In this document: positions 4,736 through 40,377 of the stretch, piece after piece | Numbering within the stretch: position 1 is the stretch's first letter | Layout: each line of letters begins with the position of its first letter | Source of the DNA: Candidatus Omnitrophota bacterium | GTDB taxonomy: Bacteria; Omnitrophota; Gorgyraeia; JABMRN01; RBG-13-46-9 | Direction: 5' to 3' | DNA: 64,000 nucleotides | NCBI GenBank assembly: GCA_016782425.1 | Contig: JADHYN010000001.1 | Location: 655 to 64,654, forward strand | Notes under the pieces: model-generated | The model's database searches: none | Seen by the model: the letters and a program-made list of their open reading frames with translations, nothing else | Told to the model about the DNA's origin: nothing | Position numbers and translations under genes: made by a program

Positions 4736-4742
4736 TTTAAAA

Positions 4743-6057: not shown

Positions 6058-6068
6058 TTTTCTCTCCT

Positions 6069-15096: not shown

Positions 15097-15103
15097 TTAT
15101 TTA

Positions 15104-20315: not shown

Positions 20316-21719
20316 CTATTTTAAGTTAATAAGTGCACCCTTGACATAATTCAACAAGTCATTCAAGCTTTTTATTTTGGCGAAATGGTAAAAAAGTATT
20401 TTAGGTCTTAAGTAAAATTCTCGAAAGGCCCTTTTTTGGCTGCGTAAAATATCCTGGGATTTAAAATTTGCGTATCTTACTACGGACAAATTTTTAACGC
20501 TATATCTGGACCAATCTTTTGTAATGATAAGGCTATTTTTAACCGCATAGTCCCATAAATCGGAACCCGGAAAAGGCGTGACAGTCGTAAAGCCTGCGGA
20601 ATAAAGCGGAAGGTTTTTTGCGAAACTCAAGGTTGCTCTTATAGTATCTCTTGTCTCACCAGGCATGCCGAACATAAAATATCCATGCGCTTTTATTCCA
20701 GCCCTGTTAGTAATTGCTATTGCGTTTTTAATTGTTTCTTTGTCGAGCCGCTTAAATTTTTTCAGCATGCTTTCATCACCCTGCTCTATTCCATATTGAA
20801 TCAACTCGCATCCGGCTTTTTTCATCCACGCAAGAACTTCCTCATTTACCTCTTTTGCGTGAGCGTTGCAATTCCATTTTATATCCAATTTATTTTTTAT
20901 TATTCCTTTGCAAATATCGATTACCCGTTGTTTATAAAGTGTGAATACGGAATCTCTTAATGAAATATATTTTACGCTGTATTTTTCATGCAGTAATTTT
21001 AATTCTTTCAGAACATTTTCAGCGCTGCGATATCTGTACCTTTTTCCCCATGTGCGCGTCACTGAACAAAACATGCACCCGTAAGGACAACCCCTGCTTG
21101 TAATAACCGTGGCGAACGCGCCTCTTTTACCCCAGTGCGGGGGCGGGTTGTACCGTTTCATTTGAGAGAGTAGCCCGTAGTCAGGAAAAGGTATCCGGTC
21201 TATGTTCATTACAAATGGTCTTGTTCCCGTATTCGTAATTGAACTGCCCGTTTTATAACTTATGCCCTTAACTGCTTGATAGTTTTTATTCCCTCTACTC
21301 GACATATCGCACAATTCAAGCATGGTATATTCACCTTCGCCTAGCACGACAAAATCCATGCATCCCTCTTTTAACGCCTCTTCGGGCATTGCGGTAGCGT
21401 GAGGCCCTCCCATAACGGTAACAATAGAGGGATTGATCTTTTTTATTTCTTTCGCAATAATATACGCAGATGGAGCCAAAATGGTCATGGCGGTTATCCC
21501 CACTATATCCGGCTTAAGTGCAATAATGCGATTTTTTATCTCTTCCATACTGCAACCAAAATTGCAAGCGTCAAGAATTTCCACATTGTAGTCGTTCTTT
21601 TTCAGCATGCTTGCAATATATAACAGCCCCAAGGGATGAGACTGAAATTTTGGCTTCACTGGCCTATTGATATTCAATCCCTGGGTAGGATTAATTAGTA
21701 ATATTTTAGGTTTTTCCAT
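20316..21719 (-). CDS. B12-binding domain radical SAM protein
   Basis: It has an N-terminal cobalamin-binding Rossmann-like segment. RGCPYGCMFCS is the CxxxCxxC radical SAM cluster motif. Confidence 0.85.
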   Translation of the reverse strand: MEKPKILLINPTQGLNINRPVKPKFQSHPLGLLYIASMLKKNDYNVEILDACNFGCSMEEIKNRIIALKPDIVGITAMTILAPSAYIIAKEIKKINPSIVTVMGGPHATAMPEEALKEGCMDFVVLGEGEYTMLELCDMSSRGNKNYQAVKGISYKTGSSITNTGTRPFVMNIDRIPFPDYGLLSQMKRYNPPPHWGKRGAFATVITSRGCPYGCMFCSVTRTWGKRYRYRSAENVLKELKLLHEKYSVKYISLRDSVFTLYKQRVIDICKGIIKNKLDIKWNCNAHAKEVNEEVLAWMKKAGCELIQYGIEQGDESMLKKFKRLDKETIKNAIAITNRAGIKAHGYFMFGMPGETRDTIRATLSFAKNLPLYSAGFTTVTPFPGSDLWDYAVKNSLIITKDWSRYSVKNLSVVRYANFKSQDILRSQKRAFREFYLRPKILFYHFAKIKSLNDLLNYVKGALINLK

Positions 21720-23124
21720 CTTGTTTTATAAAATAACGCATCATTTCCCGGAAACATCTTTTTATTAATTGAACTACTTTGTTGATCACCTGACTCTTGT
21801 TTCGATATAAAAATCCGAGCAGCTCCGCGTATCTGGAATTATGGATATACAGCCCAAAAAAGGTCCTTATACGCATGAAATCAAGATAAGTCAAATTGAA
21901 ATTCTGAAATTCAAGAACACTTCCAAAATACTTATCATATTTCGAATAATCCTTGCTCTGAAGCCTGTATCCCCCTTTATTTTCTAAAGCCAATTTATAT
22001 ACATCGGTTCCCGGCCACGGCGTCATTATGCCCACGCTGATTCCATCCGTATTAAGTTTATAAATTAAGCGTACCGTTTTTTCAATTTCGCTTTTTGTCT
22101 CGTCTATATGACCGAGAATATAGTACCCCCACGTTTTAAAACCGAGGCTTTTGGCTAAATTAACCGCGTCTACACACTTTTGCACTGAAGTATTTTTCCC
22201 TGTGGCTTTAAGAACCCTGTCCGAGCCGGATTCGATTCCAAAACTAATAGTGTGACAGCCTGCTTTTTTTATCAACGCTAAAAATTCCTTATCGACTATA
22301 TCAACTCTTGTAGTGCAATCCCATTTTAATCTTTTACTTAGCCCGTTTTCGATTATTTTACTCAACATATTTTCCGTGTATTCTCTATTTAGACCAAACG
22401 TGCTGTCGCAGATTGACAGATCGCTATTCGGTTCATGACCAAGCACATACTCTAGATCGACCAAAATATGCTCGATATCCCTATAGCGCGCCTTCCTGCC
22501 AAGCGTTCGAAAACAAAATGAGCACCTAAACGGGCAGCCCCTATAAGTATTGATAAAATATTTTTTGGCGCGAGGCCATAAACTGAAAGACGCGGGGGCG
22601 TAATCATGCAGATTATTACCATATATTTGTTCGGACGTATTTTTTATTATACCGTTTTTTCGATAATATAAACCGGGGATTCTTTCTACAGTTTCGGAAA
22701 TGGAATTCGCTTTAGACAATTTTTTTAAAATAAACTCTCCTTCACCAACCGCTACCGCGTCTAAACTGGCGTTCTCCCGAATAGTCTCGTCAGGTAATGC
22801 AGTAGCGTGGACGCCACCAAGTATAACGAACGAACCGGGTAAATGCCTCTTAATATTTGTTGAAAACGCAATGACATCTTTTATTTCGGTCGTGGTGGAA
22901 GTAAGCCCTATTATTTTCGGATTAAGCTTTACCAGACGACCAATCACTTCCTTCTCGTCTAAATTAAAAAACTTCGCGTCTATCACCTCAAACTCGATCT
23001 CGTGTTTATTAAGGTAGCCCGCCAAATACGCCAGGCCCACGTGAGGACATCTTACTTTATTAAAATTGAATTTATACGTACTATATGAGTTAAACGGCGG
23101 GTTTATTAATGCTAAATTTTTCAT
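21706..23124 (-). CDS. B12-binding domain radical SAM protein
   Basis: YRGCPFRCSFC is a CxxxCxxC motif. It is a paralogue of 20316..21719. Confidence 0.85.
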   Translation of the reverse strand: MKNLALINPPFNSYSTYKFNFNKVRCPHVGLAYLAGYLNKHEIEFEVIDAKFFNLDEKEVIGRLVKLNPKIIGLTSTTTEIKDVIAFSTNIKRHLPGSFVILGGVHATALPDETIRENASLDAVAVGEGEFILKKLSKANSISETVERIPGLYYRKNGIIKNTSEQIYGNNLHDYAPASFSLWPRAKKYFINTYRGCPFRCSFCFRTLGRKARYRDIEHILVDLEYVLGHEPNSDLSICDSTFGLNREYTENMLSKIIENGLSKRLKWDCTTRVDIVDKEFLALIKKAGCHTISFGIESGSDRVLKATGKNTSVQKCVDAVNLAKSLGFKTWGYYILGHIDETKSEIEKTVRLIYKLNTDGISVGIMTPWPGTDVYKLALENKGGYRLQSKDYSKYDKYFGSVLEFQNFNLTYLDFMRIRTFFGLYIHNSRYAELLGFLYRNKSQVINKVVQLIKRCFREMMRYFIKQDGKT

Positions 23125-24294
23125 TTATAATTCAATTGTCTTTCGTAATATACTTCGATAAACATGAATGTATTTTTCTTTTATTACATCTAATGAAAAT
23201 ATATTTTTTACCCTTTCCCTACCTTTATTTACCATCTTTTTCAAATCTTCCTTGGGTGTATTTAAAATTCGTAAAATACCCTGCGCGAGCATGTCCGATT
23301 TTCGTGGCTCAACAACAATGCCGTTTTCTCCGGCAATTATTTGTTCCCTAACACCGCCAACCGCGGTTGCGACTACGGGAACTCTCATCGCCAAAGCCTC
23401 CAATAAAGCAATGGAGCAAGCCTCGCTTACCGAAGAAAGAACAAAAACATCAAGTATCGAAAGCAGTTCGGGTACGTCGTTTCTAAAACCCAGGATGATT
23501 ATATCGTTTTCTAATCCCAGAATATTTATACTTTTATGTATTTTTTGGAAGTATCGCGCTTTATTTTTTATGGACCCTATGATTATAAATTTTGTGTTTT
23601 TTTCCTTTTTCTTAATTATACTTGCGGCTTTCAGAAAATATTCATATCCTTTCGCCTGAGTAAAATTGCCCGTAGCACCGATAATTCGGAATTCCCGCGG
23701 TATGTTTAATTCTTTTTTGATACTGTTTTTTTTTCTTTCATCCATCAGGTCAGAATTAAACTTATCCGTATCCACTGGTGCATAAAGCACGACGGATCTG
23801 GACCAAAGGCGCTTATTATTTGAAAAGTAATACCTGCCTACTTCTTCAGATGCAATAGCGATCCTGTCAGACAGGGCATGAGCCAATGGTAAAAATAATT
23901 TCTTCATAATTCCGGTAGTTACCGTGTCATTTAAGTGCCATAATATGTTAATGCCGGCAATTTTACCAGCAAACGCCGGAAGACAGTTCGTTATACCATT
24001 TATATGAAGCAATTCGATTTTCTCCGACTTGATTATTCTGTAAATCTTGTAAATGCTGCGTGGTAAAAAAATGCAAAACATAAATAAATTGATCGCCGTA
24101 AAATCGCGCGTTATGCATTGCATATACCGCATGACAAAACATTTAAAATCGTTTATTGGGACATAATTTTTGTTTTTTTCATTAAATAAAAATACTGTAT
24201 CAATATTTTCATCTTGTAGTTTCAGCGCAACATTACGCGCCCGAACCTGCGGCCCACCTAGTCTATTATCTAAAAAACAGTTTAAAACTCTCAT
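23125..24294 (-). CDS. glycosyltransferase family 4
   Basis: The GT4 C-terminal motif is SVSEACSIALLEALAMRVPVVATAVGGVREQI. Confidence 0.8.
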   Translation of the reverse strand: MRVLNCFLDNRLGGPQVRARNVALKLQDENIDTVFLFNEKNKNYVPINDFKCFVMRYMQCITRDFTAINLFMFCIFLPRSIYKIYRIIKSEKIELLHINGITNCLPAFAGKIAGINILWHLNDTVTTGIMKKLFLPLAHALSDRIAIASEEVGRYYFSNNKRLWSRSVVLYAPVDTDKFNSDLMDERKKNSIKKELNIPREFRIIGATGNFTQAKGYEYFLKAASIIKKKEKNTKFIIIGSIKNKARYFQKIHKSINILGLENDIIILGFRNDVPELLSILDVFVLSSVSEACSIALLEALAMRVPVVATAVGGVREQIIAGENGIVVEPRKSDMLAQGILRILNTPKEDLKKMVNKGRERVKNIFSLDVIKEKYIHVYRSILRKTIEL

Positions 24295-25145
24295 GAATAC
24301 TTGCTTGCTGTAAATGTCGGCTTTCTTGTGTATTTTTTATCTTTTTCTTCATCGTATAAAACAGCTCTCCAATTGGCGGGTTTTCTCCCAACTACAAGCA
24401 CCGCATCGCTTAATGCCGGGAAAAGCTTCGTAAGAATAGAATATACCGTTCTCATGATTTTATTTTTTATTTTTTTACGCCCGGCTACATTTACGCCGTT
24501 CGCGTATTCAATAGAAAGACCCTGATACTTTAAAAGCCGCTTGGATTCCTGCAGGGTATATTCCCTGACATGCCCCCTCCATGGTTTTTTGCCAAAATAA
24601 AAGCTTTCCAATGAGACATAGTTGGTCCTGCCAAACAGAACCGAAATACGCTTCCGTATATTAACGGAATTCGGCATTCCTATAAATACATAACCATTAA
24701 TCTTTAATTTGCTTATGAGCTTATTCAGTAAATCTCTTGGCGAATCATGTAAATGCTCCATTACGTCCGTTATAAGTATTCCGTCAAACGTATTATCGTT
24801 GTAAGGCAGGTTTTCATCTGTGATTTCTAAAAAATTTATATTTTCTTTTCGTACAAAATCTTTTATAAGCTCCTTGTTGTCACCTTCTAGGTGCCAACCG
24901 TCTTTTAAATCATCGCAGCCGTAACACACATAACCCATTCTGTTATAAATCGCCGTTTTATCGCATGCCCCGCAACCAAAATCCAATATCTTGGAACCCG
25001 GCAAAATATATCTTCCGATTATGCGCGCTAGCACGCTTCCGAAATCAGTTGCTGTTTCTATATAGCCTTTAAAAGGAAAATCGTTTTTTAGATCCTCTAT
25101 GATTTTCGCTATTTCCCTATCTTTGTTCTTTAGTTTTTTTCTCAT
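24291..25145 (-). CDS. class I SAM-dependent methyltransferase
   Basis: ILDFGCGACDKT is the motif I glycine-rich loop. It overlaps the upstream gene by ATGA. Confidence 0.75.
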   Translation of the reverse strand: MRKKLKNKDREIAKIIEDLKNDFPFKGYIETATDFGSVLARIIGRYILPGSKILDFGCGACDKTAIYNRMGYVCYGCDDLKDGWHLEGDNKELIKDFVRKENINFLEITDENLPYNDNTFDGILITDVMEHLHDSPRDLLNKLISKLKINGYVFIGMPNSVNIRKRISVLFGRTNYVSLESFYFGKKPWRGHVREYTLQESKRLLKYQGLSIEYANGVNVAGRKKIKNKIMRTVYSILTKLFPALSDAVLVVGRKPANWRAVLYDEEKDKKYTRKPTFTASKYS

Positions 25146-25168
25146 TCGCTTATCCTTCTTAAATTTTT

Positions 25169-26644
25169 TTACTTCTTACCTTTCAGAGTATCTATGACAT
25201 TTTTAACCAGTTTTGGACGATTAGTTTTTGCCAACTCAACAACATACGCCAATCTTTTCATGTTGAGTCTAAGTTTATCTTTCCTTGATTTCTTAGCGAC
25301 AATAGTATACGCCCTCTTTCTTGCTGCAATAAGATAACCGGCATCCAGATCATTCACCTCCAGCATGGGCTCCTCTCTTGAATAGGCCTCCCAGTTCATT
25401 CGCTTCCCTTCAATCCAGCGCAACCCTCCTTCGCCTTGATCGGCCATTTTAAATACATCAGTTGCGGGATACGCGTCAAGTATGTTTATACTTGCGTTGT
25501 CACAAGGTAATCTTGCAATCAGTTTCATCGTCTCTTCGAGTGTATTCTTATTTTCGTACGGCAATCCAAAAATAATGCTTATATTTACATGGCTTATGCC
25601 TGCGCATTTCGCGGAATGTACTTTTTCGATTATCGCATCTTTTGCGTACCCCTTATTAGCCTTTTCCAGCACCTCTTCGCTTCCGGATTCCACGCCGAAA
25701 AAGGTATATATACAGCCTGCTTTTTTTGCGTGTTTAAACATTTCAGGATCTGCGGTATCAATTCTTGTCTCAAAACCCCATTGTACTTTTTTATGCAATC
25801 CGCGCTTTATATACTCGTCGCAAAATCTCGCAAACCATTCTTTTTTTGAGCAAAATAGGCTATCTTCAAAATAAATGCGTTGTGCGCCATGCTCTTTATT
25901 TAACAAGTCAATCTCATCTAATATGTTTTCGATTGCCCGAACGCGATGTTTCCTTGTATGCAGCGGCATGCAAAAAGTGCAGCGAAAAGGACACCCGCGG
26001 GAAGCGAAAATGGGATAGACGTGTTGAAAATTATACTTACTGGGGTTGTATACTCTTGCGTACTTCTTATAACATACAAGGGAAAGGTCCGGAAATGGTA
26101 AAGAATCTAAATCCTTGATTAATGCTCTCTCATCATTGCGTATGATTAGGCCTGATTTATTACGCCACGCGACTCCTTTTAGATTAACAAACAAATCATC
26201 GGTCGCGCGGCAACCATGCCGTATTCTCTGGCAAAGTTCAACAATGGTATCCTCTCCTTCCCTTATTACAGCGGCGTCAATATCAACGCACTCTCTAAGC
26301 GTATATTCGGGTAATGCTGTCGAGTGCGCCCCGCCAACCAGGGTTATCGTTTCGGGACATACTTTTTTTACGCATGCGGCAATCTTATACGCTGAAAGTA
26401 TATTGAATGTTTTGGATGAAATACCAACTATGGCTGGACGAAGATCTTTTACTGCTTTTTCCACATCACCATGGCTTAGGTTGTACGTAGGAATATCCAA
26501 GATTTTGACGTTAGCACCGGTTTTTAATTTAACGTATGTCGCGATGTAAACAATGCCCATGTTGGGAGTGGGCAATTTTCGCCCAAGGGCCTGTTCGGTA
26601 ACCAGGCCCTTGGGCGAAGACGGATCAATAAATAAAATATTCAC
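25169..26644 (-). CDS. B12-binding domain radical SAM protein
   Basis: SRGCPFRCTFC is a CxxxCxxC motif. This is the third paralogue. Confidence 0.85.
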   Translation of the reverse strand: MNILFIDPSSPKGLVTEQALGRKLPTPNMGIVYIATYVKLKTGANVKILDIPTYNLSHGDVEKAVKDLRPAIVGISSKTFNILSAYKIAACVKKVCPETITLVGGAHSTALPEYTLRECVDIDAAVIREGEDTIVELCQRIRHGCRATDDLFVNLKGVAWRNKSGLIIRNDERALIKDLDSLPFPDLSLVCYKKYARVYNPSKYNFQHVYPIFASRGCPFRCTFCMPLHTRKHRVRAIENILDEIDLLNKEHGAQRIYFEDSLFCSKKEWFARFCDEYIKRGLHKKVQWGFETRIDTADPEMFKHAKKAGCIYTFFGVESGSEEVLEKANKGYAKDAIIEKVHSAKCAGISHVNISIIFGLPYENKNTLEETMKLIARLPCDNASINILDAYPATDVFKMADQGEGGLRWIEGKRMNWEAYSREEPMLEVNDLDAGYLIAARKRAYTIVAKKSRKDKLRLNMKRLAYVVELAKTNRPKLVKNVIDTLKGKK

Positions 26645-27741
26645 CTTGGTTCACGTTTTGTTTTATGCTTATCGGCAAGTAATATTTTTAGGCTTTCCTC
26701 AAATTTTTTTCCTATGGTCTGCGGCGTAAATCTACGAAAAGCCTCTTCCTTGCCGCTTTGCCCGATTGCACTTCTAAAGCTATGGTCAACTATTACTCTT
26801 TTTATCTTCATAAAGGTTTCATCATTATTTTCATTGTCGACAATTACGCCAGTCTTTCCATCTTCTACCTGCTCAAGCATGCCACCGAATCGATTGACAC
26901 ATACCGGTTTACCAAAAGCCTGCGCCTCGATCACCACATTGGGAAAAGCCTCTTGAAATGAGAAATGAAGCAGCATATCCGCATTTCGGTAATATTCGCC
27001 TATGTTATTCACGCAACCGATCAGTGTAGTTACCTCGCTCATGCCAAATTTCATCAAACTCTCCTGGAACATATACTTGTATGACCCCTCGCCGATTATA
27101 AGCCAAACAGCGTTTTTCGCTACTTCATCAAAAATTTTCCTCATTGTAGGCAGAAAAAATATCAGGCCTTTCATTTTATTATATATATCAAAATGGGTTA
27201 TTGATAGAAAAATATTTCTTTTACGGTTTGTTCCCGGATTTTTTTCGTGTTCCGCGACCTGTGCTTCCTTTATAATGCTATTATTTAGCGGAATTTCCAC
27301 AATCTTTATTCTGTTTTCAGGGACATCTGTATTACTAAGAATTTTTTTCTTTATGAAGCATGAATTGGCAATAATGCCGTTTGATTTATTGATCAAAAAA
27401 GTTCCCAGTTTTGCTGAAAATTTATAATACATTTTCCCAAATATATTTGGCGCCATCCTGGCAAAGGTTTTTCTTTCCTCCCAGATATCCCCTCTTAATC
27501 GCATAAAGTACGGTACGCTAAATAACAGTCTCAAAACAAATGCAAATGCTCCATGCTTGCCCTGATTATCGGTTAAAATTAAAGCTACCTTTCCGCTCTT
27601 TAGAGCCTTATGCAATGATATAAATTGCGGGATCAACTTCTTCCTGAAATTGAAAATTTGAACTATTTCTACAGCGCTCTCGCTGAGCGGTTCAATAATT
27701 TTATAATGCCTTACCGGATGTGCAATGTATACGATTCTCAA
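26641..27741 (-). CDS. glycosyltransferase family 4
   Basis: FQEAFPNVVIEAQAFGKPVCVNRFGGMLEQVEDGKTG is the GT4 EX7E region. Confidence 0.7.
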   Translation of the reverse strand: MRIVYIAHPVRHYKIIEPLSESAVEIVQIFNFRKKLIPQFISLHKALKSGKVALILTDNQGKHGAFAFVLRLLFSVPYFMRLRGDIWEERKTFARMAPNIFGKMYYKFSAKLGTFLINKSNGIIANSCFIKKKILSNTDVPENRIKIVEIPLNNSIIKEAQVAEHEKNPGTNRKRNIFLSITHFDIYNKMKGLIFFLPTMRKIFDEVAKNAVWLIIGEGSYKYMFQESLMKFGMSEVTTLIGCVNNIGEYYRNADMLLHFSFQEAFPNVVIEAQAFGKPVCVNRFGGMLEQVEDGKTGVIVDNENNDETFMKIKRVIVDHSFRSAIGQSGKEEAFRRFTPQTIGKKFEESLKILLADKHKTKREPR

Positions 27742-27753
27742 GTTTTAACCTTT

Positions 27754-29415
27754 CTACCCCAAATAACCCAGGTGGCGTAATCGTTCCATTAGGCGTTTTT
27801 CGTCGCAGGCATTATTTTCCTGTTTTTTATAAATTATACTTTCGGATTTTTGGTATTTTACCGGGGCGCAATTTTTGATTATTTCATCCCATATACGCCC
27901 ATCCATATCTTCCGGGACAGGAACCCCCATTAGATGTAAAACCGTGGGCGCTATATCCTCGATGCGAGCTTCGGAAATTCTGGCATTAGGTTTAATCTTG
28001 TTTCCCATAGCCATCAATACTCCCGAGGGGCTGTGGGACCCACCCCGCCTTCTTACGAATAAGCAGCTATCGCTCAATGTATTCCGTGTCGTGCAGCTAA
28101 AATCATCTATTTTAACTACCAAGTCCGGCATTTTATCAAGATGCGGCCCTTTAGCGTATATATCCTCTTTGCGCAAAATTTCGGCCGATTGGACCTGCCA
28201 TAGAAACTGCAACTTCTTAAATTCAGAGCAAATATGTTCTATTGTTTCTTTGCGTGCCCGCGAGGAAAGGTTTTGTTTTTCGCAAAAAGGCCCAACGTAT
28301 ATTTCGCCATAATTCCCATATCCGTAAGCTTTCGTATGTTCCCAATCAATAAGGTTTTCGTCAAAATTTATGCTGTCCCGGAAAAAGCGCTGCAGATTTA
28401 TCTTGCCCCTTACCACATTAATTAATCGTTCCATTTTTACATTGCTTCTTATTACCGGAAAAAGCATCTTTTTGATACTTCTTGTCAGGTAGCGGCTCGG
28501 GTTCTTCAATAAATTTAAAGACTCTTTTTTTAGATGCAATACCCCTATTTTTTCAAGCCACGTATTGATGTTGAACTGCCATTTCACCGGCTGCATGCCA
28601 TGATCGGACATGATTAAGACCTCCGTATCTTTGCCAGCGACTGTAATTAGTTTCTTTATGCAATCGTCCAAAATAATATAAGACTCCATTAATAAACTTT
28701 GCGCATGCATCATTTCCGGCGCAAGAAGCCTGTGAAATACGCGATCCAGACTTGTAAATGTCGTAATGAGCAAATCCCATTCCGGATATTTTTTCATAAG
28801 ATACAACGTGGCGTCAGATCGGTTAAGCATAACTTCTCTTGCGCGATTCAGCAACCATTTATCGCTAAAAAACCTTCTTTTTTCCATCCTTGATCTCTCT
28901 TCTTTCTGCCCGGCCCTGTATGAAAGAGAGGTCTTTAAATCCCAGAAATCAACTATGTAGGCGCTACCAAAGGCGCTATTTAGCTCGCTCTCCAGCCCCC
29001 TCGGGAATGTTAAAGCCATATCCTGTGGTTTGAAAAAACCGGCTACTATGAATCCATTAACTTTTTCTGCCCTAAAAACAGATGGAACATTAATAACGCC
29101 TATTTGCTTACCTGCGTCATTCACATAATCCCAGAATGCCTTTCCTTCTGAAATTTCACTGTAAATATAAGGTTGAAATGAAAATGTATTCTTTTTTCTC
29201 GTCATAAACCACGGGATTCCTATTTTTGCCGGTGATTTACCTGAGGCAAAAACATTCCACGCGGGGCAGCTGGCAGGGGGATACGTGGAACGCAATTTAT
29301 TAACTACGCCTTTTTCAAAAAATAGTTTAAACGTGGGCAACCTACCCGCTTTAACCCCGAGTTCTATAAAATTCAAATCCGCCGCATCGATTCCAACTAT
29401 AAGCAATTTGGACAT
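27754..29415 (-). CDS. alkaline phosphatase superfamily protein (type I phosphodiesterase/nucleotide pyrophosphatase fold)
   Basis: The N-terminal LLIVGIDAADLNF and internal LIMSDHGM motifs are typical metal-ligand motifs of the family. I place the start at the ATG at 29415 (MSKLLIVGID), which abuts the upstream stop at 29420. The ORF-track N-extension (to 29556) overlaps wzx and looks spurious. Confidence 0.65.
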   Translation of the reverse strand: MSKLLIVGIDAADLNFIELGVKAGRLPTFKLFFEKGVVNKLRSTYPPASCPAWNVFASGKSPAKIGIPWFMTRKKNTFSFQPYIYSEISEGKAFWDYVNDAGKQIGVINVPSVFRAEKVNGFIVAGFFKPQDMALTFPRGLESELNSAFGSAYIVDFWDLKTSLSYRAGQKEERSRMEKRRFFSDKWLLNRAREVMLNRSDATLYLMKKYPEWDLLITTFTSLDRVFHRLLAPEMMHAQSLLMESYIILDDCIKKLITVAGKDTEVLIMSDHGMQPVKWQFNINTWLEKIGVLHLKKESLNLLKNPSRYLTRSIKKMLFPVIRSNVKMERLINVVRGKINLQRFFRDSINFDENLIDWEHTKAYGYGNYGEIYVGPFCEKQNLSSRARKETIEHICSEFKKLQFLWQVQSAEILRKEDIYAKGPHLDKMPDLVVKIDDFSCTTRNTLSDSCLFVRRRGGSHSPSGVLMAMGNKIKPNARISEARIEDIAPTVLHLMGVPVPEDMDGRIWDEIIKNCAPVKYQKSESIIYKKQENNACDEKRLMERLRHLGYLG

Positions 29416-29419
29416 TGTA

Positions 29420-30949
29420 TCATATCTCCCTTTTCGAAAAATCACCGCTTTTAAGCACCCGTCTGACGGCGTTAACCGCTTTGTAGAGCAAAAAACGGTC
29501 CTCTTGCGGCAGCAACAACAAAAAACCAGCAATAAAAACAAAGTTAACGTACGCAAGTTTTAAAAACCAGCAGGCGGTAATATTTCTGATAAGCGCAAAA
29601 GTCACCAGAGCTGCGCACAAAGGAATTATTAATCTGCTATAATCCATGTTCCAGGGATGTATCTTTAAAAGGCTGTATACTTCGATTAAGCCCAACAAGG
29701 CACACAAACTAAGTGAAATGCCCGTGGCAAAGGCCGCTCCTAATATTCCAAAAATAGGAATCAGCAACGCATTTAAAATTATATTCAAGACGGCCATTAT
29801 CGCGTTATTTATAAGAATTAAATTCGGGTGTCCGGACATTTGCAGCATGAAAGGCACCGGCCCCAAACTGGCTTTTAATAAATAAAAAAAGGAAAGCACA
29901 ACAAGCACGCTTGACCCCGTTTCAAAACTTTTACCGAATAAGCCCAATAGGTTTTTAGAAAAAAATACAATAGGTAAAAAACATAAAATGCTTATAATAA
30001 GATTCCATCTTGTCGTTGTTTTAAACAAGAGCTCCGTGTTTTTTAGTTTATTCCTATTGAACAAATCCGCGATTATAGGCGCGAAGGTTTCGTTCAAAGG
30101 CGTAATTAGTAAAGTTATGGAGGCCGCTATGATAGTCGCCATGCTATATATGCCTACGTCGTCCATGTTCAAGAAAAATCCCAGCATAAAAATATCTGTT
30201 TTTGCCAAAAGAAAAAATGAGACAGTAGCGAAGAACATCGGTAAAGAAAACTTGATCAATCCGAGCGGCTCATACACGGCTTTGGTTTTTGATAAAAAAT
30301 GCGGGAAATCTTTTTTCAGATAATACAAGCTTATAATCGATGCGGCAAAGCATGAAATTACAAAGCTCCATATAGCGCCATAAAGTCGGTAGCCTATCAA
30401 GAATACAGTCGTTAAAAGGATTAAATTTATGACCGTGCGGATTAAAAGTATATAAATGTAGCGTTTCATGCTTAGAACGGCACGTATATTATTCGCCGCT
30501 ATCGTAAAAAACACAAAAAACGGCAGCGATATTGAGAAAATCCTCATTACGCCAATAAGCGCGCTTTCATGAAATATATTAATTGCGATAAAAGGAGAAT
30601 AAATATACAGTATTGACGAAATAGCTACCGAACATACCGACGAAAGAACTATTGATATGATCAATATGCCCTTTTCCCGCCCTTTGTCATCCACGCCTCT
30701 ATGTGAAGATATGAATTTGACAATTCCCTGCGATAGTCCCAATAAAGCAATGGTATGCAAAAAAGAAATGACGGTTGACCCCATCGCGTAAAGTCCGTAG
30801 GCTGGCACCCCTAGGGTGCGCGCAAGAAACGCATGCTGCACGAAGTGTAGAAAAGTATTTGCGAGCTTTCCTATGAATATAGTCGTTCCGCCCTTGGCTA
30901 ATTTTTTTATGTACTTTTCGCTGCTTTCCTGATGATTTATTTTATCCAA
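29420..30949 (-). CDS. polysaccharide biosynthesis protein / oligosaccharide flippase (Wzx-like, MOP superfamily)
   Basis: It is 509 aa with about 12-14 TM helices. The N-terminal layout KKLAKGGTTIFIGKLANTFLHFVQHAFLARTLGVPAYGLY is typical of Wzx proteins. Confidence 0.75.
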   Translation of the reverse strand: MDKINHQESSEKYIKKLAKGGTTIFIGKLANTFLHFVQHAFLARTLGVPAYGLYAMGSTVISFLHTIALLGLSQGIVKFISSHRGVDDKGREKGILIISIVLSSVCSVAISSILYIYSPFIAINIFHESALIGVMRIFSISLPFFVFFTIAANNIRAVLSMKRYIYILLIRTVINLILLTTVFLIGYRLYGAIWSFVISCFAASIISLYYLKKDFPHFLSKTKAVYEPLGLIKFSLPMFFATVSFFLLAKTDIFMLGFFLNMDDVGIYSMATIIAASITLLITPLNETFAPIIADLFNRNKLKNTELLFKTTTRWNLIISILCFLPIVFFSKNLLGLFGKSFETGSSVLVVLSFFYLLKASLGPVPFMLQMSGHPNLILINNAIMAVLNIILNALLIPIFGILGAAFATGISLSLCALLGLIEVYSLLKIHPWNMDYSRLIIPLCAALVTFALIRNITACWFLKLAYVNFVFIAGFLLLLPQEDRFLLYKAVNAVRRVLKSGDFSKREI

Positions 30950-32120: not shown

Positions 32121-33262
32121 CCCAGGTCCACGCTATTTTTATTCGTTAAAACATCCTTCAGGCGCTCCTGCGGATACCCCTTGCCGGCGGGATATTTCAG
32201 GAAAAATTTAATATTGTATTTACCCGGCGCTATCTTTGGAGTATATTCATGAACGTATACCTCACCGATTTGCCAATAAGAGGTATTTTTCTGCATTTCT
32301 TTGGCTGAATACATGGCACCATAGGGCCTGCGTTCTTGAGGCAGGCATTCCGCGTTTTCCGGCTCAAAACGAATCACGCATAAATAATCCTTGTTCATTA
32401 AGTCCAGGGATTTAAACCAAAATTTCAATTCAATCCTTTCTTTGTCAATTCTTTCTACGCCATACCCTAGAAATTGTATCTTGTTTAAAAAATTCGCGCG
32501 CGCTTCGTTTGCAGGTGAAAGTTTTTTGATTTCTGAGGTTGTTCTATGCGCACTTACACCATTAACATTATTAGCGCTAATGCGAACAAGGTTTTTTAAC
32601 GCTTCTATGTGCGCTGGTAATAAATCCACTGTTTTTTCATATTCCATACGCGCCATGTCTAATGAACCCTGTTTTTCATATATGTATCCCAATAAATAAT
32701 GAGCCTCGGCGAAGCTGCCGTTTTCGCTAAGGCTTGTCTTAAAGGCCTTTTTAGCTTTTTCGAGCATATCGCTATGTAAATAGCTTAATCCCAGTTTATA
32801 CTGCCCGTAAGAGTTTTTCGTAAAATGTATCGGTAAATCACGGCTGTTTATTTTTTCATACTTGGTTATCACGCCTACGGCTTCTTCAGTGCGGCCAGCA
32901 CCCTGATAAACGTTGTAAAGGCGTACATAATTACTAGTTATCTCGGGCCTGAGATCGATTAATTCTATTAAATATTTTTCTTCGTTTAAAATATCATTTT
33001 CGCGCTTATAATAATCCACCAACTCGGAAATCACGAAGTAATCACAGTATGAGCTTGCAACAAAAAAATCCTGCAACTTTTTTTTTCTTAACATTTGTTT
33101 TTTTCGATAAAAATTTTTATAGATGTCCACGGCCAGAGGCTCAAGGTCCTGGTTAAAACAATGCCGCGCCATTCCCAGCCTTATGAAATCCTGGCCATGC
33201 ATCCAGACCAGAGATAAAAGGCCCCCAATGAGAATAACTATCGCGAGTTTGTATTTTTTCAT
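32102..33262 (-). CDS. tetratricopeptide-repeat protein with N-terminal membrane anchor
   Basis: It has an N-terminal TM helix. TPR-like degenerate 34-aa repeats include AEAHYLLGYIYEKQGSLDMARMEYEKTVDLLPAHIEA. Confidence 0.5.
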   Translation of the reverse strand: MKKYKLAIVILIGGLLSLVWMHGQDFIRLGMARHCFNQDLEPLAVDIYKNFYRKKQMLRKKKLQDFFVASSYCDYFVISELVDYYKRENDILNEEKYLIELIDLRPEITSNYVRLYNVYQGAGRTEEAVGVITKYEKINSRDLPIHFTKNSYGQYKLGLSYLHSDMLEKAKKAFKTSLSENGSFAEAHYLLGYIYEKQGSLDMARMEYEKTVDLLPAHIEALKNLVRISANNVNGVSAHRTTSEIKKLSPANEARANFLNKIQFLGYGVERIDKERIELKFWFKSLDLMNKDYLCVIRFEPENAECLPQERRPYGAMYSAKEMQKNTSYWQIGEVYVHEYTPKIAPGKYNIKFFLKYPAGKGYPQERLKDVLTNKNSVDLGWIDIK

Positions 33263-34455
33263 TAAAAATGCAGCATTGAGTTATTTTTCAGATATTCATA
33301 CAACATAGACGCCGCCAGATAGTGCCCGTATTCGTTCCAGTGGGCTTCATGCTGAAAATATGCCGATCTCTTTGTATTGGTAAAATCAGCCTGAAAACTT
33401 TCAAGCATTGAAACGTTTAATATAGAATTCTGATCACAGAATTTATTTATCGCCGTGTAGGGATAACAGAAATCATAATCCTCCTCAGCCATAGAGCGGT
33501 AGCGTTGATAATACAGACCTGTATTCATTTCTGCCAGGGGTTTCATAGGCAGTGAAACACACAAAAATTGTATGGCGTTTCCGCGGCACACACTATCAAG
33601 CTCCTTAAGACAGGCCAACGTAACGTAAACGGCTTTCATCCAAACCATATTTTTTTTAACTAAAAATATCCCAAAATATTTCGGTATTTTATTAACATCT
33701 TTAACTCTGCGTGCCAACCGCGATATATTCTGCCGCAAAAAACAAAGGAGCTGCGACTTTTTATATACTCTGTAGAGAAATGTGCCCTTGCCTTTGTCCG
33801 TCCCGGAGGGTACGGCCGCCAGTTTGCCATATTTGTCAATCGTATAATACGGCAAAAATTCATCTTTTGTTAACTGTTTACAGCTATTGAAAAAATCATT
33901 CGCGGGATACAGGCACAGGATGACTAAGTCGGGTTTGTATTTAAGTCCGACTTCTTTAAAGTACTTTAATTGCTGAGCCGTGCCCCATCCTGACCTGGCA
34001 AGCGCAATGACTTCGTAGCTGCCGTTTGCGCTGTTGCGTTTTGAGTTTAATTGCCCTGAAAGCACGCTGGCGACGAGATTATCTTTATTGACCTGCAGCC
34101 CCTCTATCATTGAGTCGCCCAAAATAAGTATACGGAAAACATTTTTTTCTTTCTCGTAACCGTGCTCATAATCATGCTGCCCATGAGTATTTATAAAAAC
34201 TATATTATTGAATTCTTTTCCGGCAAATCTTGCACGTTGACAGGGCTTTAAAAGAGCGCCCATGGCACTGTTGGGCACCCATGCAACGGTGGATACCCTT
34301 ACATGCGGCAATACCCTTATACAGATTTCACCAATAATGAATGCGCATATAAGCCCAAGGAAGAAACGGGTAATGACGCTTCTGTTTTTAATATACTTTC
34401 CACTCATAAACTTTTTGATAATTTCGCCAAAACTCTCTTTTCCGCCCTTCTTCAA
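33262..34455 (-). CDS. SGNH/GDSL hydrolase family protein (possible glycan O-acyl esterase/acyltransferase accessory)
   Basis: It has an N-terminal TM helix. ILILGDSMIEG is the GDS(L) block I. A later start at the ATG at 34407 is possible, because the long form overlaps the upstream gene. Confidence 0.5.
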   Translation of the reverse strand: MKKGGKESFGEIIKKFMSGKYIKNRSVITRFFLGLICAFIIGEICIRVLPHVRVSTVAWVPNSAMGALLKPCQRARFAGKEFNNIVFINTHGQHDYEHGYEKEKNVFRILILGDSMIEGLQVNKDNLVASVLSGQLNSKRNSANGSYEVIALARSGWGTAQQLKYFKEVGLKYKPDLVILCLYPANDFFNSCKQLTKDEFLPYYTIDKYGKLAAVPSGTDKGKGTFLYRVYKKSQLLCFLRQNISRLARRVKDVNKIPKYFGIFLVKKNMVWMKAVYVTLACLKELDSVCRGNAIQFLCVSLPMKPLAEMNTGLYYQRYRSMAEEDYDFCYPYTAINKFCDQNSILNVSMLESFQADFTNTKRSAYFQHEAHWNEYGHYLAASMLYEYLKNNSMLHF

Positions 34456-36280: not shown

Positions 36281-36292
36281 AGGGTTGTGTTG

Positions 36293-36979
36293 TCACTGCT
36301 TTGATTGCACGCAGCACAACACATTGCAATTAAACCCAAATAAAGAAGCAAGCGCAGTTTTATCCAGCTTTCGCAGTATTGGCAACATAAAGCGCGGTGT
36401 TGCATTTGGCAGGAGTAGCGAATCTACATACGCATTTAAGATTGTCAAATTATTTTCCTTAAAAATTTGCCTTAAATATCTAAGATCAAAATCCAGTAAT
36501 CTTCGTTCTTCCGGGTGGAATAGCGCAAAAATTACATTAGCAAGATTATTTCCGTTTGGTTCCGTAATAAAAATATATTTTCGCGCCACCCTGCGCATCT
36601 CTTTTAAAGCCGCTGATTGTTTATCGAAACTCAGATGGTGAAACAGCATGCTGCATGTAACTAGATCAAAATATTTATTTTCAAAAGGCATTGCCGCTAT
36701 GTCCGCCGCTACTTTTCCAGCATTGGGGTTTACGCGCAGCATTTTGCTTGAAAAATCAACGCCCATGCAATTTATCTGGAAAGCTTCCGACAGAAATGTT
36801 TGAAAAAACCCGTTTCCGCACCCGCAATCCAGAATTGAGGTTACTTTTGTCGGAATTAAATTTTTTAGTTTTTCAGCCTGGCGTTTATAAAGGCAGACAA
36901 CCACCGGATGCGTCACGTCTCTACGATTCGATTTATCGCGGTGCCAAAATTTCTTTTGCAAGATATCGTAGGAATTCAT
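36293..36979 (-). CDS. class I SAM-dependent methyltransferase
   Basis: ILDCGCGNGFF is motif I, and FDLVTCSMLFHHL is motif II-like. Confidence 0.75.
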   Translation of the reverse strand: MNSYDILQKKFWHRDKSNRRDVTHPVVVCLYKRQAEKLKNLIPTKVTSILDCGCGNGFFQTFLSEAFQINCMGVDFSSKMLRVNPNAGKVAADIAAMPFENKYFDLVTCSMLFHHLSFDKQSAALKEMRRVARKYIFITEPNGNNLANVIFALFHPEERRLLDFDLRYLRQIFKENNLTILNAYVDSLLLPNATPRFMLPILRKLDKTALASLFGFNCNVLCCVQSKQ

Positions 36980-38076: not shown

Positions 38077-38105
38077 CCGTCCAACCTCTTGGTGCTTTAT
38101 GGGAT

Positions 38106-38957
38106 TTATTTTTTTGCCGCGCAAAATTGTATATCCCCTGTAGGAACATAAATAATCGATTTTGAAAAACGGCTTTTTATTATCCAATTCACAAGGTTCC
38201 CGGGAAACAAAAAAGGGGCGATTCTGGCGGCTTTATTTATTAAAAAACCTATATTTATCCATGCCCCTTTTGTCGTCCACCCTATTGTTTTTAACCCGCT
38301 TCTTTTGTGCAGTAGATCAATGGTGTTTCGATTAAAAAAACATAAATGCTCAGGAACGGTCATAAATGCCCAGTATTTCCTCATAAGACGTGCCACAGGC
38401 GCACCCGCATTAGGTGTACTAAATGTCAAAATGCCGCCTTTTTTTAAGAAGCGTGACAATTTTAAAAAAACATTTACCGGATCCCGTAGATGCTCAAGCA
38501 CATCCCACAGTGTAATAACGTCAAAAAAATCATCGGGGAAATCGCTTTCCTCGATCATGCGACAAATTATGCGTTCGGATAGTTCTGGATTTCGTTGTTT
38601 GGCCAATGTTGTCGCGTCTTCGGAAATATCTATGCCCCACATATCAAAATAAAGTTTGGCATGACTTATAAAATCGCCTGTCGCGCATCCAACGTCCAGT
38701 ATTTTTGCTTGATCGCATGCTCCGTTTTTGCGAAGCCAGTGGATTCTGCGGTAGCAGGTGTTTTTTATAGCTTTATCATTTATGTATTTGCCGCGAGTGA
38801 AATATTTCTTGGAATACAAGGTATAAAGATCTTTCTTTGTTTGCTCATCAAGAACTAACATAAATCCGCAATCATGGCAATGCGCAATTCTGTAAGCAGC
38901 AAATTTATAGAGCAGTGAAAGATTACGTGAACCGCAAAGGCGGCATTTTTCATGCAT
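38106..38957 (-). CDS. class I SAM-dependent methyltransferase with N-terminal Cys4 zinc ribbon
   Basis: The zinc ribbon is CRLCGS...CHDCGF. ILDVGCATGDF is motif I. Confidence 0.75.
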   Translation of the reverse strand: MHEKCRLCGSRNLSLLYKFAAYRIAHCHDCGFMLVLDEQTKKDLYTLYSKKYFTRGKYINDKAIKNTCYRRIHWLRKNGACDQAKILDVGCATGDFISHAKLYFDMWGIDISEDATTLAKQRNPELSERIICRMIEESDFPDDFFDVITLWDVLEHLRDPVNVFLKLSRFLKKGGILTFSTPNAGAPVARLMRKYWAFMTVPEHLCFFNRNTIDLLHKRSGLKTIGWTTKGAWINIGFLINKAARIAPFLFPGNLVNWIIKSRFSKSIIYVPTGDIQFCAAKK

Positions 38958-38961
38958 TGCT

Positions 38962-40377
38962 TTATTTTAGTTGCAATATATCCATACCTACCTGAAATTT
39001 CAGCTTCAGTTCATTAAGGGAACGTACCGTTCTTAAACTTTTGAAAAAATATGATGGTCTAATGTAGAATTCCTTGTAAGCAGTTTTTAATACTTTTTGT
39101 ATTTCATTCATTTGCACGGTTTCAATCCAGGATTTCGGTTTAAAACCGTCTACCGGATTGAGCGCAAATTCACGCCAGTGGTCATGAGGAAACCTGCCGG
39201 AAAACATGCCTTCTTCGTATAGAGGCGTACCGGGAAATGGAATAAGTATCGTAAAATGGCAATACTCAGGATTGAGTTGTTTCGCGAACTTTATCGTTTC
39301 CAGCATATCAGGCAACATTTCTCCAGGACATCCGAACATGAAGTATGCTGCGGTATGAATTCCTGTATTTTTAGACAATTTAAAAACGCTTCTGATCTTT
39401 TCTTTAGCAATGTTTTTCCCCAATCTTCTCCGTACTCTATCATTGCCAGATTCTACGCCATAGTTAATCATTTTGCAGCCAGCCGATTTAAGTGCTTTTA
39501 ACATCTCTAAATCTACACAGTCTATGCGCGCACGAATGCTCCAGATAACCTTAACGCCTCTTTGCTTTATTTCCCTGCAAACCTCGAAAACGCGCTTTCG
39601 GTCAACGTTAAACGTATCATCATAAAACATGATCTTTACAGCACCCGCTTTTATGCATTCCTCCATTTCATCCACTATGTCACCGGCGCTTCTGGATCTA
39701 AAATTTTTCCCAAGATGTGGCCTATCACAAAACGTACATTTATATGGGCATCCGCGCGAGCTAATCATTGTCGTAATCCCAGATCCAAGCACACTCGAGA
39801 AGTAACGTTTGTTTTTTATCATCGCCCTGTCCGGATGAGGAATATCATCTAACTTCTCAATTAAATTGGAGCTCGTGTTGCACACGACATCGCCTTTTTT
39901 AGTTTTGAAACAAAAACCTTTTATTTCTTTCAGGCTATCTTCGTCATTCCATAAGTTTAAAAGCTTCGCGATTGTATACTCCCCCTCGCCCAAGACCACA
40001 TAGTCAACACAGTTAAAGCCTATAGTCTCTTTAGGATAAAGATGGACATGAGGACCGCCGAAAATTACTTTTATTAGAGGGTTTATTTTTTTTGTAAGGC
40101 GAGCCGTGCGCAAGCAATCTATCAACGAATGAGTCATAGCAGTAATGCCTACGGCATCGGGTTTGCTGCGTTTTATACGCTCTTGGATTTGCCCATAATT
40201 CAATCTCTCGGCAACACAATCAACGAACTCCACATCCCAATCAGTCCACCGTTTTACGCTGGCAGCGATATAAAGCAAGCCTAAGGGTGGGACAATTCCT
40301 GTTCCGCGTTCCAGCACATCAGGTAATTTTGTATCGATAACATTTTCTTCTGAAGGGTATAATAAAAGAAGTTTCAT
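38962..40377 (-). CDS. B12-binding domain radical SAM protein
   Basis: SRGCPYKCTFCDR is a CxxxCxxC motif. This is the fourth paralogue. Confidence 0.85.
   Translation of the reverse strand: MKLLLLYPSEENVIDTKLPDVLERGTGIVPPLGLLYIAASVKRWTDWDVEFVDCVAERLNYGQIQERIKRSKPDAVGITAMTHSLIDCLRTARLTKKINPLIKVIFGGPHVHLYPKETIGFNCVDYVVLGEGEYTIAKLLNLWNDEDSLKEIKGFCFKTKKGDVVCNTSSNLIEKLDDIPHPDRAMIKNKRYFSSVLGSGITTMISSRGCPYKCTFCDRPHLGKNFRSRSAGDIVDEMEECIKAGAVKIMFYDDTFNVDRKRVFEVCREIKQRGVKVIWSIRARIDCVDLEMLKALKSAGCKMINYGVESGNDRVRRRLGKNIAKEKIRSVFKLSKNTGIHTAAYFMFGCPGEMLPDMLETIKFAKQLNPEYCHFTILIPFPGTPLYEEGMFSGRFPHDHWREFALNPVDGFKPKSWIETVQMNEIQKVLKTAYKEFYIRPSYFFKSLRTVRSLNELKLKFQVGMDILQLK

Follow-up and report, generated by a model that had tools for sequence, protein, structure and literature searches.

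The 64,000-nucleotide stretch of contig JADHYN010000001.1 from a Candidatus Omnitrophota bacterium (hereafter the window) carries a surface-polysaccharide operon with four genes for proteins that combine a B12-binding domain with a radical S-adenosylmethionine (SAM) domain, named here rS1 to rS4. The best overall explanation of these genes, to which we give a probability of about one half, is that they encode four soluble, cytoplasmic class-B radical SAM enzymes that tailor the glycan of this operon, with C-methylation as the most likely chemistry. The components of this reading are not equally firm: judged from sequence comparison, it is very probable that rS1-rS4 tailor intermediates of the glycan, a lipid-linked sugar is the slightly favoured substrate of rS4, and methylation is the predicted reaction at even odds. 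Below we describe the domain content, operon structure, orthologue groups, conserved neighbourhoods and gene fusions from which we infer the lipid-linked substrate, the use of cobalamin and the transfer of methyl groups.

Four radical SAM proteins in one polysaccharide operon

The four proteins score 63.5-95.5 bits against the B12-binding profile PF02310 and 69.9-92.9 bits against the radical SAM profile PF04055, in every case above the Pfam gathering cut-offs of 32.1 and 29.5 bits. Each contains a single CxxxCxxC motif (CPYGCMFC at residue 211 in rS1, CPFRCSFC at residue 197 in rS2, CPFRCTFC at residue 218 in rS3 and CPYKCTFC at residue 210 in rS4), and hydropathy predicts no transmembrane (TM) helix in any of them. 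By these domain criteria rS1-rS4 are members of the class-B radical SAM superfamily. A first-pass annotation of the window had reported four such proteins between positions 20316 and 40377; all four open reading frames are there, on the minus strand, and both limits are exact gene ends. Public gene calls on identical metagenome contigs agree (467, 472, 491 and 471 amino acids for rS1 to rS4), and deposited proteins 100% identical to rS1, rS3 and rS4 are labelled 'cobalamin-dependent protein [Candidatus Omnitrophica bacterium]'. The presence of four copies of one domain architecture in a single operon cannot be chance.

With a GC content near 40%, the window carries nearly all of its genes on the minus strand; stretches of it recur, identical, on several metagenome contigs. 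The radical SAM genes belong to a single operon of 28 genes (12694-45451, minus strand) with intergenic distances of -26 to +31 bp, flanked by ordinary housekeeping genes of anaerobes. It encodes an initiating phosphoglycosyltransferase, Wzx, Wzy_C and Wzz proteins, three family 4 glycosyltransferases (GT4) and one family 2 glycosyltransferase (GT2), and is a surface-glycan locus of the Wzx/Wzy-dependent type whose set of tailoring genes is unusually large (Table 1). The three class-I SAM methyltransferases counted in the first-pass annotation are all present, and its placement of the radical SAM genes between GT4 genes holds in part: GT4c adjoins rS3 and GT4b adjoins the rS2-rS1 pair, but rS4 lies between the GT2 and a methyltransferase. 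The other flank of rS3 is a methyltransferase and that of the rS2-rS1 pair an epimerase.

Pairwise identity among rS1-rS4 is only 28-33%, and in a distance analysis with 125 homologues, paralogues and homologues in other phyla are equally far from each copy. A recent duplication was considered and rejected on this ground. Orthologues of rS1 (52-62% identity) were found in Phycisphaerae, Candidatus Brocadia and a deltaproteobacterial metagenome-assembled genome (MAG). The rS4 group is the broadest, with at least 120 cluster representatives at 45-61% identity from Patescibacteria, Brocadiaceae, Planctomycetes and Bacillota, while for rS3 identity falls off sharply after some 35 representatives at 47-66%. 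Close relatives of rS2 are few: two representatives of 50%-identity clusters (50% and 47% identity), and then nothing above 40%. The copies had been described as diverged and likely to have distinct substrates, and this is borne out to the extent that rS1, rS3 and rS4 each have an orthologue group of their own in other phyla. Since these separate groups recur in glycan loci there, each of the three probably modifies a different sugar or a different position.

Some homologues are much longer than the window proteins. Four polypeptides of 1280-2331 amino acids (P0421, P0463, P0477 and P0492) contain two to four stretches homologous to rS2, that is, they are multi-module proteins of the B12-binding radical SAM type. 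A 2026 preprint describes radical SAM and GT4 domains within giant proteins of Omnitrophota.

Conserved neighbours and fused genes

To look for the locus architecture in other genomes, we scanned species-representative genomes with close orthologues as query, which gave 596 relatives, and used the best 79 loci. These come almost entirely from MAGs of anaerobes (Dehalococcoidia, Bathyarchaeia, DPANN archaea, Omnitrophota, Planctomycetota and Smithella). In 38 of the 79, two to five genes of the B12-binding radical SAM type lie within 10 kb on either side. Among 125 same-strand adjacent neighbours from 67 genome loci there are 13 GT4 and 12 GT2 glycosyltransferases, six epimerases or dehydratases and six class-I methyltransferases. 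Matches to the glycosyltransferases of the window make up 10.9% of direct neighbours, about 5% of genes at a distance of two to six genes and 1.5% at seven genes or more. This dependence on distance, which serves as an internal control, corresponds to an odds ratio of 8 (Fisher p = 8e-4).

The orthologue groups show the same association. Neighbours of rS1 orthologues include Wzy, GT4, an asparagine-synthase-type amidotransferase, MBOAT, a carbamoyltransferase and a phosphoglycosyltransferase. For the rS3 group, one locus (L173) is of the ABC-transporter polysaccharide type with GT4 genes and a sulfotransferase, and another (L174) contains NeuB, CMP-transferases and epimerases. Brocadia, Phycisphaerae, Patescibacteria and others carry members of the orthologue groups in their glycan loci. 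Relatives of the window proteins thus recur in glycan loci of other phyla, and this qualifies the statement in the first-pass annotation that the arrangement is highly unusual: it is so against characterised loci only, for dozens of MAGs carry relatives beside glycosyltransferases and almost half of the loci sampled are multi-copy. A different context was seen for distant rS1 relatives of Bathyarchaeia and related archaea (L018, L024, L028-L030, L036, L043, L048 and L067), which adjoin large pyrroloquinoline quinone (PQQ)-type beta-propeller proteins and radical SAM proteins containing HemN_C, with no glycosyltransferases.

The most regular neighbourhood is that of rS4. In Brocadiaceae and Patescibacteria loci the gene order is GT2, sometimes a nitroreductase-family gene, B12-binding radical SAM gene and class-I methyltransferase, with PMT_2, LPG_synthase_TM, phosphoglycosyltransferase, Wzy_C-TPR and Wzx genes nearby. 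In a metagenome scan, upstream DNA was available for 17 rS4 orthologues, and for 11 of them a gene orthologous to the window GT2 (102-264 bits) lies on the same strand and at most three genes upstream. Pfam assignment of 81 neighbours of 20 rS4 orthologues gave 14 GT2, nine class-I methyltransferases, eight PMT_2, five LPG_synthase_TM and three nitroreductases, and a class-I methyltransferase follows the rS4 orthologue in six loci (L091, L092, L093, L098, L099 and L106). In addition, parts of the cassette occur as natural fusions. One protein (P0075), encoded in the glycan locus L087, consists of an ArnC-like GT2 followed by a B12-binding radical SAM enzyme, and a second (P0228) of an rS4-like protein (46% identity, full length) followed by a class-I methyltransferase, both in the order of the genes in the window; in a third (P0060) a methyltransferase is joined to an rS1-like enzyme.

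The window GT2 has two hydrophobic helices at its C-terminus, like GtrB and ArnC (hydropathy), and its best NCBIfam matches, all of them below cut-off, are AglJ (119 bits, full length), PpgS, PgfS, ArnC and a Dol-P-hexose transferase. An integral-membrane glycosyltransferase (GT-C), as expected for an Arn- or Gtr-type module, is present (PF13231 at 44.2 bits, about nine TM helices), and PMT_2 proteins are co-conserved with rS4 orthologues. A flippase of the GtrA/ArnEF or PF03706 type was not found in the window operon, where the tight packing of the genes leaves no room for such a small gene; PF03706 proteins account for five of the 81 neighbours at the rS4-orthologous loci.

Two further features of these loci were noted. 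The nitroreductase-family (FMN) gene lies between the GT2 and the rS4 orthologue in loci of the Patescibacteria type (L091 at 7355-7999, L092 at 7352-7999 and L099 at 5356-6000), and may supply a dedicated reductant for the Fe-S cluster or cobalamin. In the Brocadiaceae locus L090, PA14-domain proteins (4273-6711, 9699-11780 and 13899-16430) surround the GT2-radical SAM pair, and as one of them is fused to a PMT_2 GT-C, the GT-C of this locus may carry a carbohydrate-binding module.

Chemistry of the radical SAM proteins

We classified rS1-rS4 by their scores against curated NCBIfam profiles and by sequence and fold searches of the PDB. All four stay below the cut-offs of every NCBIfam family. 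The top profile is HpnJ (TIGR03471) for rS1 and rS4, with BchE (TIGR02026) second, and BchE for rS2 and rS3. HpnJ scores are 229, 129, 152 and 206 bits for rS1 to rS4 against a cut-off of 577.6, and BchE scores 207, 158, 164 and 177 bits against 481.35. The HpnJ match is nearly full length, covering profile positions 34-444 of 472 with rS1 and 72-466 with rS4. ApyD, the PhpK family and a ladderane-type lipid enzyme rank next, and profiles of C-methylases acting on sugars, lipids or indole score lower: 62-93 bits for the KedN5 family (NF033712, cut-off 700), 79-109 bits for HpnR (cut-off 650) and at most 54 bits for TsrM. By these scores rS1-rS4 lie outside HpnJ, BchE and every other curated family, and the 'BchE' labels that many homologues carry from automatic annotation are over-annotation. 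A hopanoid, bacteriochlorophyll or RiPP (ribosomally made, post-translationally modified peptide) context was also considered and rejected, as the window has no such genes; shc, hpnH, hpnI and hpnK in particular were absent from the open reading frames scanned across it.

Among solved structures, the closest by sequence are AprD4 (over the radical SAM core only), MgmA (9ccb), OxsB, TokK, TsrM and CysS. AprD4 (6fd2) is the best PDB match both by sequence (E = 5.8e-28 and 1.2e-26) and by fold (template-modelling score 0.77), and the nearest folds to an AlphaFold2 model of rS1 (pLDDT 94.4) are AprD4, MgmA, TsrM and OxsB. A review of the class places the non-methylating BchE and HpnJ in its largest, unexplored group, 'with no clear structural features' relative to methylases, and C-methyltransferases occur in each group of which some member is characterised (PMC12931638). 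Classification of these sequences neither confirms nor excludes methylation, because no structural feature separates methylases from non-methylases (PMC12931638).

The N-terminal domains were compared in the same way. They align with those of the cobalamin-bound TokK, OxsB and CysS, and with the HpnJ, BchE and PhpK profiles, from about residue 6-30 onwards, and the motifs GG.H and GEGE are invariant or nearly so among 120 homologues. The AprD4 profile match is limited to the radical SAM core (residues 177-408). Because the alignment with TokK, OxsB and CysS covers the N-terminus and the AprD4 profile does not, the domain appears to be a canonical class-B domain and not an empty one like that of AprD4. 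The classical D.H..G motif, whose lack the first-pass annotation had named as grounds for regarding the proteins as plain radical SAM enzymes, is indeed absent from all four, yet this absence is uninformative, since cobalamin-bound class-B structures are all base-off without a His ligand (PMC12931638). At the position of the classical DxHxxG loop, rS1 residues 26-31 (window ~21629-21646, minus strand) read Q-S-H-P-L-G; His28 is conserved in at least 90% of the orthologues at 52-62% identity, and is not conserved in rS2-rS4 or in the wider homologues.

For rS4, the genes around it support the following pathway. The membrane-anchored GT2 would load a sugar onto polyprenyl phosphate, and rS4 and the adjacent methyltransferase MT3 would modify this lipid-linked monosaccharide at the cytoplasmic face. 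After flipping, the PMT_2/ArnT-like GT-C would transfer the modified sugar to the glycan or to another envelope acceptor. The remaining enzymes, rS1, rS2 and rS3, which lie beside GT4 genes and the initiating phosphotransferase, may act on undecaprenyl-diphosphate-linked intermediates or on nucleotide sugars, and the contexts of rS3 favour the latter. The most likely reaction would be methylcobalamin-dependent methylation of an unactivated sugar carbon, with the three class-I enzymes adding O- or N-methyl groups. We favour C-methylation because conservation of the cobalamin domain is strong and the class is known chiefly for methylation. For rS4 alone there is the further reason that a C1-C5 ring contraction of the type proposed for HpnJ and calditol synthase (Cds) would destroy the anomeric phosphate that the GT-C needs, whereas C-methylation would leave it intact, so that the product would still be a usable donor. 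Of the original interpretation, then, a glycan locus with B12-domain radical SAM enzymes and their ancient divergence stand; C-methylation is plausible and not established. More tentatively, and at somewhat less than even odds, the genes may represent a widespread glycan-tailoring module of uncultivated anaerobes (Omnitrophota, Patescibacteria, Planctomycetota including anammox relatives, and others), in which a GtrB/ArnC-like GT2 would make a polyprenyl-phosphate sugar, a cobalamin-radical SAM enzyme would give this lipid-linked sugar a C-methyl or other carbon-centred change, a class-I methyltransferase would add one more methyl group and a GT-C would deliver the product to the surface.

Tailoring of the same glycan by a chemistry other than methylation is the alternative closest to this reading, and a rather unlikely one. 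It would comprise ring contraction to a carbocycle, dehydration or deoxygenation, epimerisation or C-C coupling, with bound cobalamin as an electron sink, as proposed for OxsB. The top-ranking families agree with it (HpnJ for rS1 and rS4 nearly over their length, BchE for rS2 and rS3), genetics links HpnJ and Cds to the contraction of lipid-linked hexose rings, the HpnJ substrate itself comes from a GT2 (HpnI) and a deacetylase, and the sugar-acting AprD4 is the best PDB match; besides, non-methylating members are indistinguishable from methylases by sequence or structure (PMC12931638), and separate class-I methyltransferases, sometimes fused, already provide methylation capacity. But the HpnJ and BchE scores are far below the cut-offs, the likeness to AprD4 extends over the radical SAM core only, methylases form the majority of characterised class-B enzymes (PMC12931638), and, as far as mechanism allows us to judge, a C1-C5 contraction would be incompatible with transfer by the co-conserved GT-C. 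We also consider it doubtful that the substrates are soluble nucleotide sugars, with the radical SAM enzymes in precursor supply and the adjacent GT2 using the modified nucleotide sugar. The NeuB, CMP-transferase and epimerase/dehydratase genes around rS3 orthologues, the frequency of epimerases and WecB beside relatives and the solubility of all four proteins would suit such a role. The conserved order GT2, radical SAM gene, methyltransferase around rS4, the GT2-radical SAM fusion P0075 and the co-conserved GT-C and PF03706 proteins fit better with modification after lipid loading, for which HpnJ and ArnD are precedents.

Two other explanations have less in their favour. One takes the N-terminal domains for degenerate Rossmann folds that, like that of AprD4, bind no cobalamin, and the four proteins for plain radical SAM enzymes. 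No solved structure is nearer than AprD4, AprD4 and ArsL lie inside B12-radical SAM sequence networks and bind no cobalamin (PMC12931638), and the D.H..G motif is missing; against this, PF02310 is matched at two to three times its gathering cut-off, the N-termini align with those of TokK, OxsB and CysS while the AprD4 profile leaves them uncovered, GG.H and GEGE are near-invariant, and binding in the base-off form without His is the rule of the class, all of which makes the explanation improbable. Least probable of all is that the genes were merely inserted here and act on a lipid, a peptide or a cofactor. The Bathyarchaeia relatives beside PQQ beta-propeller and HemN-like genes, and curated relatives that act on lipids, tetrapyrroles and peptides, could be read in this way. 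Yet the reading frames overlap or nearly abut within one operon, glycan loci also house the orthologues from at least four other phyla, GT2 fusions exist, and the enrichment of glycosyltransferases depends on the distance from the radical SAM gene.

Several observations weigh against four cobalamin-dependent C-methylases, rS4 among them acting on a lipid-linked sugar. The two top-ranking families, HpnJ and BchE, are non-methylases, and their scores amount to less than half of the cut-offs. The closest fold, AprD4, is a cobalamin-free diol dehydratase, and a PF02310 match is not proof of cobalamin binding. For rS3, the presence of orthologues among nucleotide-sugar enzymes speaks for a soluble rather than a lipid-linked substrate. 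The assignment of the window GT2 as a polyprenyl-phosphate sugar synthase relies on its sub-threshold best matches, and the operon lacks the flippase expected in such a module. The neighbourhood statistics derive from crude calling of open reading frames, single-sequence phmmer panels and loci fetched by family-specific peptide patterns. Every statement on function made here is based on homology, gene order and fusions.

Other genes of the operon

The genes of the operon are listed in Table 1, and some of them suggest further modifications of the glycan. The SQD1 homologue at the operon head aligns over its full length with Arabidopsis SQD1 (1i24, E = 2.7e-82), carries an 85-residue Cys-rich N-terminal extension (CTCWNCP...C) and is flanked by the genes for the thioredoxin and a PF01663 protein; given this homologue, the glycan may contain a sulfonated 6-deoxy sugar. 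The first of the two PF01663 proteins has no PDB sequence relative at E ≤ 0.001, and transfer or removal of phospho- or sulfo-groups by the two is possible. A WbuX-like homologue between two class-I methyltransferases hints at an acetamidino or related N-modified sugar. The genes for the formyltransferase and the XrtA-type deacetylase (PF01522 + DUF3473) overlap by 4 bp, resembling the formylation/deformylation logic of Arn. Directly after the operon lies a gene for an AAA_14/DUF4143 ATPase (11013-12221, minus strand), with a counterpart on a related contig (L001, 19499-20707); in the latter, a truncated HI0933-like fragment between the ATPase gene and WecB suggests rearrangement at the locus edge.

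Table 1. Genes of the operon, listed from its first to its last gene (window coordinates)
Gene product	Coordinates	Strand	Evidence and remarks
Wzz-type chain-length determinant	44456..45451	-	PF02706 + PF13807; first operon gene; start from public gene call
Alkaline-phosphatase-superfamily protein	43146..44429	-	PF01663 143 bits
UDP-sulfoquinovose synthase (SQD1/Agl3) homologue	41617..43149	-	NF041015 418 bits (cut-off 575)
Thioredoxin	41304..41642	-	PF00085 102 bits
GT2, polyprenyl-phosphate sugar synthase type (putative)	40391..41272	-	PF00535 122.5 bits; 13 bp upstream of rS4
rS4, B12-binding + radical SAM, 471 aa	38962..40377	-	PF02310 89.6, PF04055 92.9 bits
MT3, class-I SAM methyltransferase	38106..38957	-	PF13489 91.7, PF08241 62.9 bits; directly downstream of rS4
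WbuX-like N-acetyl-sugar amidotransferase homologue, 366 aa	36976..38076	-	TIGR03573 143 bits (cut-off 203); start from public gene call
MT2, class-I SAM methyltransferase	36293..36979	-	PF08241 65.8, PF13649 62.8 bits
GT-C (PMT_2, ArnT-like), 627 aa	34388..36271	-	PF13231 44.2 bits; ~9 TM helices + C-terminal soluble domain by hydropathy
381-aa protein, one N-terminal TM helix/signal anchor	33262..34407	-	Sub-threshold GDSL-like match only; no NCBIfam match
TPR protein with N-terminal hydrophobic segment	32102..33262	-	Profile match + hydropathy
Second PMT_2-like membrane protein, 392 aa, 8 TM helices	30942..32120	-	PF13231 28.5 bits (cut-off 26.1); hydropathy
Wzx-type flippase (MOP family)	29420..30949	-	PF01943 90.1 bits
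Second alkaline-phosphatase-superfamily protein	27754..29415	-	PF01663 91.1 bits; start from public gene call
GT4c glycosyltransferase	26641..27741	-	PF00534 89.8 bits
rS3, B12-binding + radical SAM, 491 aa	25169..26644	-	PF02310 67.1, PF04055 69.9 bits
MT1, class-I SAM methyltransferase	24291..25145	-	PF08241 40.9, PF13489 40.0 bits; between rS3 and GT4b
GT4b glycosyltransferase	23125..24294	-	PF00534 133.2 bits
rS2, B12-binding + radical SAM, 472 aa	21706..23124	-	PF02310 63.5, PF04055 82.8 bits; 14-bp overlap with rS1
rS1, B12-binding + radical SAM, 467 aa	20316..21719	-	PF02310 95.5, PF04055 86.6 bits
NAD-dependent sugar epimerase/dehydratase	19366..20289	-	PF01370 132.2 bits
GT4a, WcaI-like	18120..19373	-	NF007640 217.7 bits (cut-off 276); PF00534
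Initiating polyprenyl-phosphate glycosylphosphotransferase	16751..18112	-	TIGR03025 318.2 bits (cut-off 295.55); PF02397 218 bits
Polysaccharide deacetylase, XrtA-system type, ArnD-like fold family	15874..16728	-	TIGR03006 237 bits (cut-off 276); PF01522, PF11959
Formyltransferase, ArnA N-terminal-domain-like	15104..15877	-	NF005998 122 bits; PF00551
Wzy_C family polymerase/ligase	13843..15096	-	PF04932 81.4 bits
UDP-GlcNAc 2-epimerase WecB	12694..13839	-	TIGR00236 316.5 bits (cut-off 210); last operon gene

Significance and comparison with known systems

Known substrates of class-B enzymes are antibiotics, tetrapyrroles, lipids and peptides. The class comprises tens of thousands of sequences, its largest group being essentially unexplored, and a 2026 review of it never mentions polysaccharide, glycan or glycosyl substrates (PMC12931638). 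We found no B12-binding radical SAM enzyme characterised in a polysaccharide, lipopolysaccharide or capsule pathway in the literature covered, which leaves out most subscription journals; the Omnitrophota preprint and a paper on C. jejuni HS:19 mention radical SAM genes in passing only. New here are the three orthologue groups and the GT2-radical SAM-methyltransferase cassette, backed by natural fusions, which link this unexplored enzyme space to envelope glycans of Omnitrophota, candidate-phyla-radiation bacteria, anammox relatives and Dehalococcoidia; its recurrence beyond the window makes the arrangement less of an oddity and more general. Should the module be real, it would represent a new substrate class for B12-radical SAM enzymes and a new route to C-branched sugars of surface polysaccharides, of which this operon would stack up to four steps. 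Should the reaction be C-methylation, surface glycans of anaerobes would carry a cobalamin demand, and some '+14 Da' sugars read as O-methyl could be C-methyl. The S-layer glycan of Kuenenia, which is heavily methylated and for which the paper names no genes (PMC5088730), is an example.

The curated family closest to rS1 and rS4 is HpnJ, which has the same two-domain architecture, a similar length and the highest score. Its proposed substrate is a lipid-linked aminosugar (glucosamine) that is installed by the GT2 HpnI, then deacetylated, and putatively ring-contracted, and radical SAM action on hexoses anchored to a lipid has precedents in HpnJ and calditol synthase (PMC13459092). However, rS1 and rS4 reach less than 40% of the 577.6-bit cut-off, hopanoid genes are missing from the window, the reaction proposed for HpnJ is ring contraction and not methylation, and its product is the head group of an end-product lipid rather than a glycosyl donor. 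BchE, the anaerobic Mg-protoporphyrin IX monomethyl ester cyclase, differs in its score, far below cut-off, and in its bacteriochlorophyll context. GenK, GenD1, Fom3, the KedN5 family, HpnP and HpnR belong to the same superfamily with the same domain order and carry out C-methylation, some of them on aminosugars; unlike rS1-rS4, with which their profiles score weakly, these antibiotic-pathway and hopanoid methylases have soluble secondary-metabolite intermediates or hopanoids as substrates, not intermediates of surface glycans. AprD4, the radical SAM 1,2-diol dehydratase of apramycin biosynthesis, is similar in acting on a sugar ring and is the best PDB match, but the likeness covers the radical SAM core only, and AprD4 binds no cobalamin and belongs to an antibiotic pathway.

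With respect to assembly, the closest systems are Arn (ArnC-ArnD-ArnE/F-ArnT) and Gtr (GtrB-GtrA-GtrC), which pair a GT2 polyprenyl-phosphate sugar synthase bearing C-terminal TM helices with a GT-C; in the window, a GT2 putatively of this type occurs together with a GT-C. In the Arn pathway the lipid-linked sugar is tailored before flipping, ArnD deformylating it at this stage, and genes for an ArnA-like formyltransferase and a deacetylase are present in the window too. The tailoring enzymes are different, a B12-domain radical SAM protein and a class-I methyltransferase in the window, and the window has no GtrA/ArnEF flippase. The arrangement can be described as class-B radical SAM tailoring grafted onto Wzx/Wzy and Arn/Gtr-type assembly, and it recurs in many uncultivated anaerobes.

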